From NCBI GenBank assembly GCA_021205225.1, contig JAJPXX010000222.1, forward strand, positions 5,298-69,297: a DNA stretch of 64,000 nt, given 5' to 3'. The DNA is from Lachnospiraceae bacterium (lineage in GTDB: Bacteria; Bacillota; Clostridia; Lachnospirales; Lachnospiraceae). Shown here piece after piece: positions 30,001 through 39,000 of this stretch (positions are counted from its first letter, which is position 1; each line of letters begins with the position of its first letter). The position numbers were made by a program.

Positions 30001-33000
30001 GGCAGCTTTCTGGGAGCGGGCGGATTTTCTATCCTTTTTGGCGGAACATGGCGGGATGCGCTTTGTGCGGGTGTCTGCGGCCTGGTGATCGGAGTGACTG
30101 ATACGATTCTGGATCGATTTCACGCGAATCCATTTTTCCGCACGATTCTGGCGGCTTTTCTGATGGCGGTTCCCGCTTATGCCATGGGCGCGTATGGGAT
30201 TGCGGACAATGCGGATGCGGTGGTTATCGGCGCATTGATGCTGCTGGTTCCGGGACTGCTTTTTACAAATGCCATGCGGGATATTATTTTTGGCGATACC
30301 AATTCCGGCACCAACCGGATTGTGCAGGTCTTTCTGATTGCTGCAGCGATCGCACTGGGCACCGGCGCCGCCTGGAACCTGGCGGAAACGCTGTGGGGGA
30401 TTCCTCTTGCGGCATCTGAACCGGGGTACCATTATATTCTTCAGGCGATTGCCTGTTTTATCGCCTGCGCAGGCTTTTCGATGCTGTTTAACATCCACGG
30501 GATTGGCGCTTTGCTTTGCTGCCTGGGCGGAATGCTCTCCTGGTCAGTGTATTTTTTTGCCCTGCGCTTTGGCAGTGCGGATCTGACGGCTTATTTTCTG
30601 GCGTCCGTGTTTGCCGCGGCCTATTCGGAAATCATGGCGCGCATTCGCAAATTTCCGGCGATTTCCTATCTGGTCGTCTCCATTTTTCCGCTGATACCAG
30701 GGGCGAGCGTATATTACACGATGAATTACATCGTGCGCCAGGAGACAGAAAGCGTGTATGGACAGGGCTTGTATACTGTTGCGGTCGCCGGAATCATCGC
30801 GGTCGCCATTTTGATGGTATCGACGATTGCGCGGTGGGGGAGCCTGAAGAAGTGAGAATGGCGGCAGCTTTGCGCAAGACCATCGAAGTGAAGACCTGCA
30901 GCTCGATGCTTTGAATCGTTATGAAATAGCTGTAATAAGATTCCAACATAAATTTCAGGAAGCCGGTGCAGACTAAGGTAGAGAGAAAAAGACAGATGAC
31001 AGGATACACTCTGTCAGAAAGGCGGCTTTCTGCCAATGAAAAATCGATTTATCCGCTGCGGGATGTATGGATGGTGTCTGGAGGTTCTCTGGACCGGACT
31101 GCATTCGCTCGCTCACCACGATCCGAAGCTGATGGGGTTTTCTTCCCTGCATATGTTTCCTATTTATGGTCTGGCGTCTCTGATCGCGCCGCTTTCGGGT
31201 GCTTTGAAGCGATTCAATACATTTACGAGAGGCCTGATTTATATGGTTGGTATTTTTGCTGTGGAATATTCATCCGGAATGTGGCTGAAGAAGAGAGACC
31301 GATGCCCCTGGGACTACAGTGATTCCCCCTATCATGTGAATGGAGTGATCCGGCTCGACTATGCGCCGATCTGGTTTCTGACCGGTCTGTTTTTTGAAAA
31401 AGCAGGAAAGGCATCTTCGGAGCGCTGAAAAAGCGGGCGGAGATGCTTTCACTCCGGTAAAAAACAATAGTGTACTGCGAAAATGTATGATTGCTTACCG
31501 ACGCAGGACAGATAAGAATGTGAAATATGAGGAGTAGATTTTTATGGTAAACCAGTTTTCCAGAACGGAGCTTTTATTGGGATCAGAAGCGATGGATAAG
31601 CTTTTTCACGCGCGCGTGGCTGTGTTTGGGCTCGGCGGTGTGGGAGGCTATACCGTGGAGGCGCTTTCCAGAAGCGGAATTGGCACGCTTGATCTGATTG
31701 ACGACGATAAGATCTGCCTGACGAATCTGAATCGCCAGATTTTTGCGCTTCAGAGTACGATTGGAAAATACAAGGTCGATGTGGCCGGGGAGAGAATTTT
31801 ACAGATCAACCCGGACGCAAAGGTACATAAATATAAGATTTTTTATATGCCGCAGACCGCAGAACAGTTTGACTTTTCGCAGTATGATTATGTCGTGGAC
31901 GCGATTGACACTGTGACCGGAAAAATCGCGCTGGCAGAACAGGCGGAAGCGGCGGGGACGCCCATTATCAGCTGTATGGGAGCCGGGAATAAGATGGATG
32001 CGTCTGCACTGGAGGTGGCGGATATCTATGAAACCAGTATTTGTCCCCTGGCCCGCGTGATGCGCCGTGAATTAAAAAAACGGGGGATCAGAAAACTGAA
32101 GGTGGTTTATTCCAGGGAACCGGCGATGAGACCGATGGATCATGAGGATGCCGGAACGGATGAAAACAGCGCCGGGCGCCGACAGGTGCCGGGAAGCAAC
32201 GCGTTTGTCCCGGCTGTAGCGGGGCTGATTATCGCCGGAGAGGTTGTGCGGGATCTGGCGCAGGTCTGGCCTGCGGCTCAGGGTCTGTGATCTGATGAAG
32301 AAGATCAATGATTTCCTGTTCTGTCTCAGAAGGGAAACCGTCTACACTGGGGGTATTTTGCTTCGTAACGCCGTCTACGCAGCCGAGCGCGACAATTTGA
32401 CGCAGAAATCCGGAGATTTCCTCATAGGAAGGAAATACCGACTGCTCCTGCAAAAGATCTAAATAGGCGACCAGGGCATAAGCTCCCCAGTTCGAGGTGG
32501 TGGCGATGATCAATTCATCGACTGTGATTTCGCAGGGCGTTAGCGAAAGCTTTTCAGAAATCACATTTTTCAGGTTTCCCATCCCGATTTCGTTGCCGCC
32601 ATCTCCGATCCCAATTGTGAAAATATGGGCGTCGGACGCAAGCTCAAACATGGTATCGATGTGAGCGGTCTGCGCGGAGATGCTGGTACCTTTCATGTTT
32701 GCGTAATCCTGATTCTGATTTCTGCCGCAGCGCTCGATGGAAATCAGGCATACCGGGTGAAAATGGTCAAGGAGGCTCTGGTACCAGGCTGCGTTTGCCT
32801 GGATTCCTACATAGAGGACGAAAATTCCTTCCGGCTCAAACAGACCGTCGCAGACGCGGTCGGTGACAATAATCGGAGTGAATCCAAGCTTTTTCAGTGC
32901 GAGCGCGATGATAAGGGCGCCGGGCGGTCCGTCGGTCTCCGCATGACCGGCTACGTAAAAGCCGGTCGTCAGAAAAACGGTTCCGCGCTCCAGGGAAAGT

Positions 33001-36000: not shown

Positions 36001-39000
36001 AGGATAAAAATGGATGATATCTCCCGCACGGCAGAGGACGGGATCGTCCCGATTCGGATTGTAAAAATCCAACGGCGTACTCCCGATCAGCCGCCAGCCG
36101 CCCGGTGATTCGAGAGGATAGACGCCTGTCTGGTTTCCGCCGATGCCAACAGCCCCTTTGGGAATTTTGACACGAGGCGTAGAAAGCCTTGGCATGGCAA
36201 TCCGCTCATCGAGGCCGCCCAGGTAGACAAAGCCGGGCAGAAAGCCGAGCATATAAACCTTATATTCGGCACCGCTGTGGATGGTGATGATCTCATCCCG
36301 ATCAATTCCGGTATAGCGTTCCAGATCAGGAAGATCCGGCCCGAAATGTGAGCCGTAGCAGCAGGGAATGTTCAGAACCCGGCCTGTGCCTGATACAGAA
36401 GCTTCCGGCAGCTGTACAAGCTGCATGATCATGGACTTCAATTCTTCGTATTTCAGGATGGAAGGCTCATAAATAATCAGCAAAGAGCAGAAGGTTGGCA
36501 CAAGCTCCGTGACGCCGGTGATGGAAGCTTCCTGAATCCGCGCAGCCAGCGCGTGGACACGGTTGTTTACTGCCGGGTCAATTTTGTTCCCGAATTCTGC
36601 TGCCAGAGCGTGATCCCCTGCCGGTACGATTCGAACGTTTTCTGTTATAGGATTCATAGGCTTATCACATCCTTTACTGCGCCTGATCCAGTGGTATAGT
36701 TGTTTTCGGGAGCGGGAATTCCAATGACTGTTCACACGTTTGTCGCCTCATGAAATTCTTCAATCAGTGCTTCGCGGATTTTTCCAAGCAGCTCCGGCTG
36801 CTTTTTGCCGACCGGTTTTCCGTCAATTTCATTTGCCCACAGACAGAGGTTGCTGGAGCTGGTCACGATCACTTCTTCCGCCGCAAACAGGTCGTCGAGC
36901 GTGAAAGCGGTTTCATTTACCGGGATACAGAGCTTTTTACACATCCGAATCAGATGTGCGCGCGCAATACCGGGCAGAATCAGATTGTCTGTCGGCGCGG
37001 TGCGGAGCATACCATCCTGTATAATATGGACATTGCTGTGCGCACACTCGGTCACACGCCCGCCGGGGCGGTAGAAGACCGATTCCTGGCATCCGGCTTC
37101 CTTTGCGCGCTGTGCTGCCATGACGGAAGGGATCAGGTTCAGGGTCTTGATGTTGCAGTGATAGAAACGGGTATCCTCTGTTGTAATCAGTTTGATTGGG
37201 TTTTTTCCATCGGAAATTTCCTGATGTGTCAGGGTAATCCAGAGGTTTCCGGGAGCGTCTGTAAAGACATGGTTGCGCGGTCCGCTGCCGCGTGTTACCT
37301 GATAATAGACAAAAAGGTCGCCGCTGTCCATTTTCTGAACCAGCTCATTGAGAAGCTCTTTCAGCTCTGCTTTGGAGACCGGCATCTGAATTTTCAGCAG
37401 ACCTGCGCTGTTGAAAAAACGGTCGATGTGTTCGTCGAGCGCGAAAATGTGATAATTGCGGCAGGGACCGGCATCGTAAACGCCATCTCCAAACCAGCAG
37501 ACCCGGTCATTCATCGGAACCGACATTTCGTCGAGTTCTCCGAATTTTCCATTATAATATCCGAGTGTTTTCATAAAAAACCGCCTCCCTTTTTGGCTGT
37601 CCGACAGGGATTCCTGTCGGATAAAAAAGAGACGCAACGAAATCCGGTTCCTGCCGTGACTTCTTTGTCGTCTCTGTCTGACCTGATTTTAGGAATGTTC
37701 ATGGAAATTGTCAACTGTCTTTTGAAATTCACAAATAATTTTGCAAAAATGAGAATTAGAAAAAAATAATTTTTAAAAACAGGAAAAATGACAAGAATAA
37801 ATTCGGACGGTTTTAAAATTCGGACATTTTCTTTCGGAAAAGCGGGAAAGAGGCAGAGTTGACAGACCAAAAAGATTGGAGTATAGTCGGCGCATGGTCG
37901 GACGAACAAAGGCGTTTGGTGGCGAGGGAGCCATCAGGCGCTTTTTCTTTGCGCAGATGCGTGAAGAGAGAGGATGATCATATCGGTAAAATCCGGCGGC
38001 TGCAAAGGCATCAGACAGAGAACAGTGACCGGATCGGCAAGCTCAGAAGAGGAGGAATTGTATTATGAAAATGAAAAAGTGGTTCACTACGGCACTTGCG
38101 CTTTCTCTGGCGGCGACAACAGTCGCTCCGATGACAGCGCTGGCGGATGAGGAGGAAGATTACGTTATTAAGGTTGGCGTGATTTGCGCAATGACCGGCG
38201 GCTCCGCTGTATATGGCGAAGGTGCGCAGAATGCGATTAACATGGCGGTGGAAGAGATCAACGCGTCGGATTCCGAGTACACCATTGAGATTCTGAATAA
38301 TGGGAATGTGGCAGATGATGCGAAGGACGCGACGGAAGCAGTCAATGCCTACAATTCACTGATGGCGGAGGATCCGGAGGCGATCGTTGGTTCGTTTTTC
38401 TCAACTCCGACTCTGGCAATGGCAGAGCTGGCGGCAGATGATGGGATGCTTCTGCTGGCGACCGGCGCGACGAATGTGAATGTTACACTGACCGGCGACA
38501 CGATTTTCCGCAACTGTTTCATCGATCCGTTCCAGGGTGAGATGGCGGCACAGTTCGCATCGGAGCAGGGATATACTTCCGCATATGTGATTTACGCGAA
38601 GGATGATGATTATTCCAACGGCCTGAAGGACGCGTTTGTAGAGAGCGCAGAGGCGCTTGGCATTGAGATCGCGGGTATCGCGGAATGTACGACGACCGAC
38701 ACGGATTTCACCGCGCAGGCAACCAATGCGGTGGCGTCCGGTGCGGATTTCGTATTTTACCCCTGCTTCCTGGATACGGTTCCGCTTCTGGTACAGCAGG
38801 TAAGAGACGCTGGCTTTGAGGGCGCGATTATGGGCGGCGACGGCTGGGATGGCGCTGACACGACCGGTTATGAGGATTATTTTGATAACTGCTATTTCAC
38901 AAACCACTATTCATCGGAGGATACCTCTGAGGCGGTTCAGAACTTTGTTACGAAGTATACGGAAGCCTATGGAACAGACAGCCTGAATGCCTGCGCGGCT

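Follow-up and report, generated by a model that had tools for sequence, protein, structure and literature searches.

A conserved Lachnospiraceae operon combining a D-amino-acid transaminase, the PxpABC 5-oxoprolinase and two separately encoded DGLUCY-type domains: a candidate route for nitrogen salvage from D-amino acids

The gut is rich in D-glutamate and D-alanine stemming from the cell walls of bacteria, and to our knowledge it is not known how strict anaerobes recover the nitrogen of these D-amino acids. A 64,000-nucleotide stretch from a Lachnospiraceae bacterium (assembly GCA_021205225.1, contig JAJPXX010000222.1, positions 5,298 to 69,297; hereafter the window) carries a six-gene operon, dat-pxpB-pxpC-DUF1445-pxpA-DUF4392, which may bear on this question. 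The operon proved to be real and conserved, and it brings known enzyme families together in an uncharacterised combination. It probably forms a salvage system, induced by nitrogen limitation, that links D-amino acids, D-glutamate and 5-oxoproline to L-glutamate, a reading to which a probability of about three in four is given here. DUF1445 and DUF4392 are widespread families, and our literature search found neither a function tested in bacteria nor any bacterial study of DUF1445, DUF4392 or this operon. The six genes fill positions 32229-37574 as open reading frames (ORFs) on the minus strand:

36732-37574, minus strand: dat, fold-type IV D-amino-acid transaminase, 280 aa (PF01063, TIGR01121, 3daa)
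35932-36657, minus strand: pxpB, 5-oxoprolinase subunit B, 241 aa from the ATG at 36657 (PF02682, TIGR00370)
35016-35909, minus strand: pxpC, 5-oxoprolinase subunit C, 297 aa from the ATG at 35909 (PF02626, TIGR00724)
34074-34898, minus strand: DUF1445/YcsI/UPF0317 protein, equivalent to the N-terminal domain of animal DGLUCY (PF07286, NF003969)
33289-34062, minus strand: pxpA, 5-oxoprolinase subunit A (LamB/YcsF; PF03746, NF003814)
32229-33176, minus strand: DUF4392 protein, equivalent to the C-terminal domain of animal DGLUCY, of the di-metal TON_0340 family (PF14336)

The gaps between these genes measure 11-117 nt, and a recognisable ribosome-binding site is present at most of them. The start codon of pxpB was picked by comparison with its homologues. 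Each gene is single-copy in the 3.46-Mb assembly, which is 98.6% complete. The ORF calls and a promoter search agree with the initial annotation in placing six co-oriented genes behind one near-consensus promoter, and the gene identities proposed there are upheld by Pfam and NCBIfam matches.

The transaminase is, by its best matches and signature residues, of the D type, as had been suggested, and not a branched-chain aminotransferase (BCAT) or an aminodeoxychorismate (ADC) lyase. It matches PF01063 with 158 bits. Its best NCBIfam model is TIGR01121 (221 bits, cut-off 277), and NF005209 reaches 218 bits (cut-off 320); both equivalog cut-offs are thus missed, and both models outscore all BCAT and ADC-lyase models, the best of which attains 150. 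The best structural match is 3daa, the D-amino-acid transaminase of Bacillus YM-1, with 160 bits versus 112 for the best BCAT. In the alignment with 3daa, CNIKTLN pairs with CDIKSLN and VTECAHSNV with VTEGSSSNV, and the equivalents of the catalytic lysine (K145) and of E177 are kept. Likewise, FGDGVYD pairs with FGDGVYE and TRGSGPRNH with TRGTSPRAH, with retention of the equivalents of Y31, R98 and H100, the alpha-carboxylate trap that we take to determine D-specificity in the YM-1 structure.

All three subunits of the oxoprolinase are found in the one cluster, and each reaches its family model: TIGR00370 for PxpB (206 bits, cut-off 146), TIGR00724 for PxpC (314 bits, cut-off 230) and NF003814 for PxpA (380 bits, cut-off 226). 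The equivalog model NF045499 is not reached by PxpC (255 versus 500 bits). As the set is single-copy and no Hyu/OPLAH-type homologue was found in the genome, the PxpABC of the window is the sole oxoprolinase candidate of this bacterium.

A scan with one genome per species yielded 32 loci encoding a DUF4392 relative (referred to by L numbers), onto which the window proteins were mapped. Pxp genes adjoin DUF4392 in 22 of the 32; DUF1445 is present in every one of these 22 and dat in 19. The gene order varies among the loci (in L026, dat comes after DUF4392), and a linkage that persists through such rearrangements argues for a shared function. Co-occurrence across genomes, a point on which the initial annotation had called for a check, is seen in these 22 loci, rearranged orders included. 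The operon is also found in cultured Dorea strains (L012, L013). In five further loci, from rumen Bacillota, an adjacent or overlapping DUF1445-DUF4392 pair stands alone (L017, L019, L020, L021 and L031; around 9200-10860), with no Pxp or dat gene within 10 kb, and in the remaining five DUF4392 is solitary.

Some clusters contain additional genes. In L032, from a Ruminococcaceae metagenome-assembled genome (MAG), the order is Na:alanine symporter, alanine racemase, dat, pxpA, DUF4392, pxpB, pxpC, biotin carboxyl carrier protein, biotin carboxylase and DUF1445. The two biotin genes between pxpC and DUF1445 (11075-15761) suggest that the Pxp ring opener has a variant here which depends on biotin. 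The Oscillospiraceae loci L029 and L030 are without dat; between pxpC and DUF1445 they carry a gene resembling class A beta-lactamases (PF13354), at 4143-4985 in L029 and in the equivalent stretch of L030, and a LysR regulator is encoded divergently.

The window encodes both DGLUCY-type domains, PF07286 with 233 bits and PF14336 with 255 bits, not on one polypeptide but as separate genes with pxpA in between. An exhaustive phmmer search with the DUF1445 protein against 1.8 billion representatives, whose long matches were then scanned with Pfam, recovered 3,642 cluster representatives at an E-value of 0.001 or better. Among them are DUF4392-DUF1445 fusions in both domain orders (P0001 and P0014 versus P0008, P0015, P0057 and P0075), some of them from bacterial metagenomes and one, a DGLUCY-like protein, from a choanoflagellate. 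In at least five representatives, one of them from a Planctomycetota MAG, DUF1445 forms the C-terminus of a Hydantoinase_A/Hydantoinase_B (OPLAH-type) oxoprolinase. These fusions are new evidence beyond the initial annotation, and they strengthen the functional link between DUF1445, DUF4392 and oxoprolinase that it had drawn. OPLAH-type and Pxp-type oxoprolinases are unrelated, so DUF1445 appears to track the oxoprolinase function rather than one particular protein complex. Because a D-glutamate cyclase fused to an ATP-spending ring opener would be futile, the fusions favour a DUF1445 that would either feed the oxoprolinase, by epimerisation of the D-lactam, or alter its stereospecificity. Two other kinds of fusion were seen: P0032 (584 aa, JGI metagenome) joins a threonine-dehydratase-like pyridoxal-phosphate enzyme (PF00291) to DUF1445, and P0002 and P0036 join the MGMT domain DNA_binding_1 to it, although the latter two may be gene-calling artefacts.

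The DUF1445 protein reaches NF003969 (“putative hydro-lyase”) with 412 bits, above the cut-off of 324, and is ~52% identical to 2pif and 3db9, structural-genomics proteins of unknown function. It has two cysteine motifs, LIGCSFSFE (Cys130) and FWPCGVTPQ (Cys238), located at strand-to-helix junctions in the AlphaFold2 model (pLDDT 84.6). Conservation was counted on 102 near-full-length cluster representatives: Cys130 (GCSF) is conserved in 90% and Cys238 (FWxCGVT) in 94%. Both cysteines are present in 90 proteins, only Cys130 in two, only Cys238 in six and neither in four (Fisher p 7e-4, uncorrected for phylogeny), which indicates correlated losses. The replacements are mostly Ser, Thr or Gly, with one His at position 238, and the pair is retained in all DUF1445 fusions.

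Classical D-glutamate cyclase is stimulated by Mn. The DUF4392 protein matches the structures 4dwz and 5gkx in phmmer searches, and the alignment to them shows that all six metal ligands are retained (E80, D82, E148, D192, E196 and D279), corresponding to the invariant acidic ligands E59, D61, E115, D157, E161 and D246 in the di-Mn site of TON_0340 (PMC5132392). If DUF1445 indeed feeds the oxoprolinase or modifies its stereospecificity, this leaves the metal enzyme DUF4392 as the likelier cyclase of the two. The C-terminal tail of the protein (32229-32290) is of low complexity and not conserved, and its gene overlaps over 62 nt with the 3' end of a convergent TcdA-like ThiF-family gene (31544-32290).

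The weak Mn-dependent phosphatase activity of TON_0340 (PMC5132392), together with the five loci in which DUF4392 stands alone and away from Pxp genes, opens a different view of the cluster. DUF4392 might act on small molecules as an Mn phosphatase, and DUF1445 might be a hydro-lyase of unrelated function, neither acting on D-glutamate or oxoproline in bacteria, in which case the genes would form a looser island of nitrogen metabolism. This is very unlikely: the phosphatase activity is very low (kcat/KM of 190 per M per s on AMP; PMC5132392), the two domains are fused in either order, the animal fusion has a measured D-glutamate cyclase activity (PMC5339696), and close linkage to Pxp and dat recurs across rearranged clusters.

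Evidence for the nitrogen-related part of the salvage reading comes from the leaders. The operon and a divergent LIV-type importer each possess a promoter and an attenuator:

37686-37714, minus strand: dat-pxp promoter, TTGACA-17-TAAAAT, 11 of 12 consensus positions, the best site of the region
37621-37675, minus strand: dat leader attenuator, an intrinsic terminator hairpin with a T-run, fold -23.7 kcal/mol
37859-37887, plus strand: LIV operon promoter, TTGACA-17-TATAGT, 11 of 12 positions
37903-37950, plus strand: LIV leader attenuator, a CGAAC-AAAGGC-GTTTG hairpin overlapping an intrinsic terminator, fold -22 kcal/mol, conserved in L002-L010

The TTGACA/TAnAAT pair of the dat promoter is kept in related loci. 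Within the 5' arm of the dat leader terminator, GAC-AAAGAA-GTC (37669-37658) can be recognised as a 3-bp stem with an ANTAR-type hexaloop. This motif is conserved in 14 related leaders, with A at loop position 1 in 13 of them and G at position 4 in all; these two loop bases characterise ANTAR targets, whose hexaloop hairpins canonically come as a pair, P1 and P2 (PMC3369931). In L010, where dat is absent, the motif precedes pxpB, and in L013 a related version precedes the alanine symporter. RNAalifold detected only the mini-hairpin in the leaders, invariant and without covariation. The distance between the conserved 12-mer and the -10 box ranges from 12 to ~90 nt, yet the motif is always inside the terminator hairpin; a DNA operator was rejected on this ground, and a function at the RNA level is indicated instead. 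A riboswitch was likewise rejected, as Rfam gave no match at E-values up to 1, and the purine-rich motif gave only partial, unconserved matches to PyrR-like and RAT/BglG-like elements, so that these two readings were dropped. A second perfect hairpin, CCGACAGGAATCCCTGTCGG, is located at 37601-37620 (minus strand) between the leader terminator and the ribosome-binding site of dat, and is not conserved in related loci.

Elsewhere in the genome, an ANTAR protein of 183 aa (PF03861, 66 bits) is encoded directly 3' of glnA (contig C114:3423-5560), and the glnA leader carries GAAC-AAAGAC-GTTC in a terminator, like the dat and LIV leaders. A genome-wide structured scan identified seven promoter-flanked instances of such a hexaloop in a terminator, compared with 0-2 for each of ten permuted control loops. 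Besides dat-pxp, LIV and glnA with the ANTAR gene, the instances are:

C107:7975: leader of a circularly permuted ATP-grasp (CP_ATPgrasp) operon
C224:17271: leader of an SBP_bac_3 transporter operon
C18:1861 and C227:39276: leaders of two SBP_bac_5 transporter operons

The three transporter operons encode ABC systems for amino acids or peptides. The shared leader device points to a place for the dat-pxp operon in a putative nitrogen-scavenging regulon. In Clostridium, genes of nitrogen assimilation are known to be under ANTAR control of the NitR type (PMC6316151, PMC3369931); the arrangement seen here resembles one such case, the NitR/glnA antitermination system of Clostridium saccharobutylicum (PMC6316151). 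By analogy, the leader terminators would hold both divergent operons off, and a NitR-like ANTAR protein probably relieves them when nitrogen is scarce. Membership in such a regulon indicates the growth condition, nitrogen limitation, under which the operon is expected to be induced.

The most economical route through these enzymes can be outlined as follows. The LIV importer would take up a small amino acid, a Na:alanine symporter having this place in other lineages, and Dat would transfer the nitrogen of a D-amino acid to 2-oxoglutarate, giving D-glutamate. The di-metal DUF4392 protein would cyclise D-glutamate to 5-oxo-D-proline. DUF1445 would then bridge the D branch to the oxoprolinase, most economically by epimerising 5-oxo-D-proline to 5-oxo-L-proline by means of Cys130 and Cys238, after which PxpABC would open the ring at the expense of ATP to yield L-glutamate. 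The net result would be a one-way D-to-L inversion against the large L-glutamate pool. A racemase could not push trace D-glutamate into an L-glutamate pool that is orders of magnitude larger, so the expenditure of energy makes sense; an energy-costing inversion of D-glutamate at the level of a derivative has a documented precedent in DgcN-DgcA, as presented in PMC12363236. The route also explains why DUF1445 accompanies both types of oxoprolinase and is present in all Pxp-DUF4392 loci. This particular sequence of steps is held tentatively, at somewhat less than even odds. As first sketched in the initial annotation, the chain from D-glutamate over 5-oxo-D-proline and epimerisation to L-glutamate is borne out in part, namely by the gene identities, the D-type transaminase, the cysteine pair and the genetic links.

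Other observations weigh against it. A Foldseek search of the DUF1445 model against the PDB gave no DapF/ProR or Asp/Glu racemase fold; it retrieved only 2pif and 3db9 of its own family and the weak NrpR-like match 3nek (E-value 1e-4, template-modelling score 0.37-0.45). Of the earlier comparison with two-cysteine racemases, the conserved pair thus stands and the racemase fold does not. The excretion of 5-oxo-D-proline by humans speaks against the animal enzyme being an efficient epimerase. Mouse DGLUCY, which contains both domains, yielded no L-glutamate (PMC5339696). The genome furthermore encodes the glutamate racemase MurI (264 bits, above the cut-off) and an alanine racemase (alr), so that the term “racemase-independent”, applied to the pathway at the outset, cannot mean a cell devoid of racemases. 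With murI and alr present, and Dat alone able to move D-glutamate nitrogen to D-alanine, the ATP route is not strictly needed. Our literature search revealed no assay of any enzyme of this operon in any bacterium. On the regulatory side, each leader has one hexaloop hairpin and not a tandem of P1 and P2, and the upstream RNA is too short for P1. At the level of gene content, L005 (224-4704) has the order dat-pxpB-pxpC-DUF1445-DUF4392 with no pxpA in the 14.7 kb examined, and an alanine racemase, which is unneeded in the D-to-L direction, recurs within the clusters (between pxpA and DUF4392 in L011, and in L032). This recurrent linkage fits a reverse flux, from D-glutamate out to alanine, at least as well, if not better.

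Such a reverse flux would result if the cluster encoded an ATP-driven 5-oxo-D-prolinase. PxpBC would supply the ATP-dependent activation and PxpA hydrolyse the L-lactam, with D-specificity conferred by DUF4392, DUF1445 or both; 5-oxo-D-proline, imported or formed spontaneously from D-glutamate, would be opened to D-glutamate and then reused for the cell wall or converted by Dat to 2-oxoglutarate and D-alanine, the latter passing through alanine racemase to L-alanine. The insertion of alanine racemase at two different cluster positions (L011, L032) agrees with this, as does the adjacency of dat to alanine racemase or Na:alanine symporters in L013, L026 and L032, Dat and alanine racemase being a natural exit from the D pool; a Na:alanine symporter is found immediately 5' of dat in the Dorea loci L013, L014 and L027. 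The lack of pxpA in L005 would make sense if the hydrolase-like di-metal DUF4392 protein substituted as the hydrolase, and the fusion of DUF1445 to ATP-dependent Hyu/OPLAH enzymes fits as well. Katane and colleagues reportedly found in 2018 that DGLUCY works reversibly and that ATP and ADP modulate it, which would also be in favour of this reading. Nevertheless, PxpB and PxpA reach the NCBIfam cut-offs of their families, and the characterised PxpABC and OPLAH enzymes are specific for 5-oxo-L-proline (PMC13274462). A futile cycle would arise if DUF4392 and DUF1445 freely cyclised D-glutamate, as the animal enzyme does, and a physical complex of Pxp and DUF proteins is not in evidence. On balance, a 5-oxo-D-prolinase appears rather unlikely.

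The conversion of D-glutamate to 5-oxo-D-proline by DGLUCY-type proteins (PMC5339696) is compatible with yet another arrangement, in which racemic pyroglutamate would be used by two independent branches and no epimerase would be required. PxpABC with ATP would open only 5-oxo-L-proline, and DUF4392 with DUF1445 would be a reversible, ATP-independent D-glutamate cyclase run backwards on 5-oxo-D-proline, pulled by Dat, and by alanine racemase where present, towards 2-oxoglutarate and alanine. Every part would have a role without a new activity, D-glutamate would be held low by Dat and alanine racemase, and the nitrogen-regulon context suits pyroglutamate as a nitrogen source, as for the pxp genes of B. 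subtilis and C. glutamicum (PMC10448178, PMC13274462). However, the linked transporters are of amino-acid type (LIV, Na:alanine) and not known pyroglutamate carriers. Two facts are left unexplained: the fusion of DUF1445 to ATP-dependent oxoprolinases without DUF4392, and its occurrence alone in pxp operons of the B. subtilis type. The ring-opening equilibrium strongly favours the lactam, and the D branch would thus need a high substrate concentration. Two separate branches are accordingly judged quite unlikely.

Returning to the route by way of lactam epimerisation, its boldest form can be stated as well. DUF1445 would epimerise 5-oxoproline without a cofactor, as a new enzyme whose fold is unlike that of known racemases; together with a di-Mn DUF4392 cyclase and the ATP-dependent oxoprolinase it would make up an undescribed one-way inversion of D- to L-glutamate, switched on by a single-hairpin variant of ANTAR/NitR control in gut Clostridia. 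Taken as a whole, this is doubtful. If true, the epimerase assignment would also indicate what the N-terminal domain does in human DGLUCY.

On the plus strand, the importer lies divergent from the operon, as had been noted at first, and is followed by a kinase-family gene:

38065-42908, plus strand: LIV/HAAT-type ABC importer of five genes, encoding a binding protein, two permeases and two ATPases (PF13458, PF02653 twice, PF00005 twice)
42915-43679, plus strand: Cytidylate_kin2-family gene closing the LIV operon (PF13189, 154 bits)

The nearest relative of the binding protein in the PDB is 3td9, an amino-acid binding protein, and the PDB relatives indicate only “amino acid” as ligand. The importer adjoins the operon only in the nine closest loci (including L002, L003 and L006-L010), and in L010 a Cytidylate_kin2 homologue adjoins livF. 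No regulator gene adjoins the operon, the neighbours being Cytidylate_kin2, a TatA/TatC-like ORF, ThrE, NUDIX and TcdA.

Compared with known PxpABC operons that include YcsI (B. subtilis ycsF-ycsG-ycsI-kipI-kipA, E. coli ybgJKL and C. glutamicum pxpTABC), the same three Pxp subunits are encoded here. As in B. subtilis, DUF1445/YcsI is one of the operon genes, and nitrogen regulation and linkage to a transporter are likewise features of the known systems. DUF4392 and the D-amino-acid transaminase are added in the operon described here. A LIV-type ABC importer takes the place of the Nramp-like YcsG/PxpT. Where the known operons are controlled by TnrA/KipR or PxpR, this one probably depends on its leader terminator and the ANTAR-type hairpin in it. 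Its PxpC is below the PxpC equivalog cut-off.

With the ANTAR/NitR regulons (EutV, NasR, AmiR and NitR-glnA of Clostridium saccharobutylicum), the leaders share the short stem, the hexaloop with A1 and G4, the overlap with a terminator, an ANTAR gene directly after glnA and nitrogen-related targets. Tandem hairpins are canonical in those regulons, whereas here one hairpin is found, starting ~5-25 nt from the transcription start, and operon and ANTAR gene lie on different contigs.

The DgcN-DgcA system (Yu et al. 2023, ISME J, as cited in PMC12363236) has, in that secondary account, a comparable logic: an N-acylated D-glutamate, for which the internal lactam would stand here, is racemised and hydrolysed to L-glutamate, with irreversibility driven by energy. 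By the same account the proteins are unrelated, an acyltransferase and an N-acyl-amino-acid racemase in the place of the cyclase, DUF1445 and PxpABC; the energy comes from acyl-CoA instead of ATP, and the racemisation is demonstrated there, whereas here it is inferred.

The animal mitochondrial DGLUCY (C14orf159, EC 4.2.1.48) consists of the same two domains, PF07286 and PF14336, with the cysteine pair and the six metal ligands conserved, and single-chain fusions of these domains also exist in bacteria. Within this type, only the mouse enzyme has been assayed for the conversion of D-glutamate to 5-oxo-D-proline (PMC5339696). In the Lachnospiraceae operon the two domains are on separate genes and are coupled to an ATP-dependent ring opener and a transaminase, a coupling not found for the animal enzyme. 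With one activity per gene, in contrast to the fused mammalian enzyme, a domain-by-domain assignment of function becomes testable.

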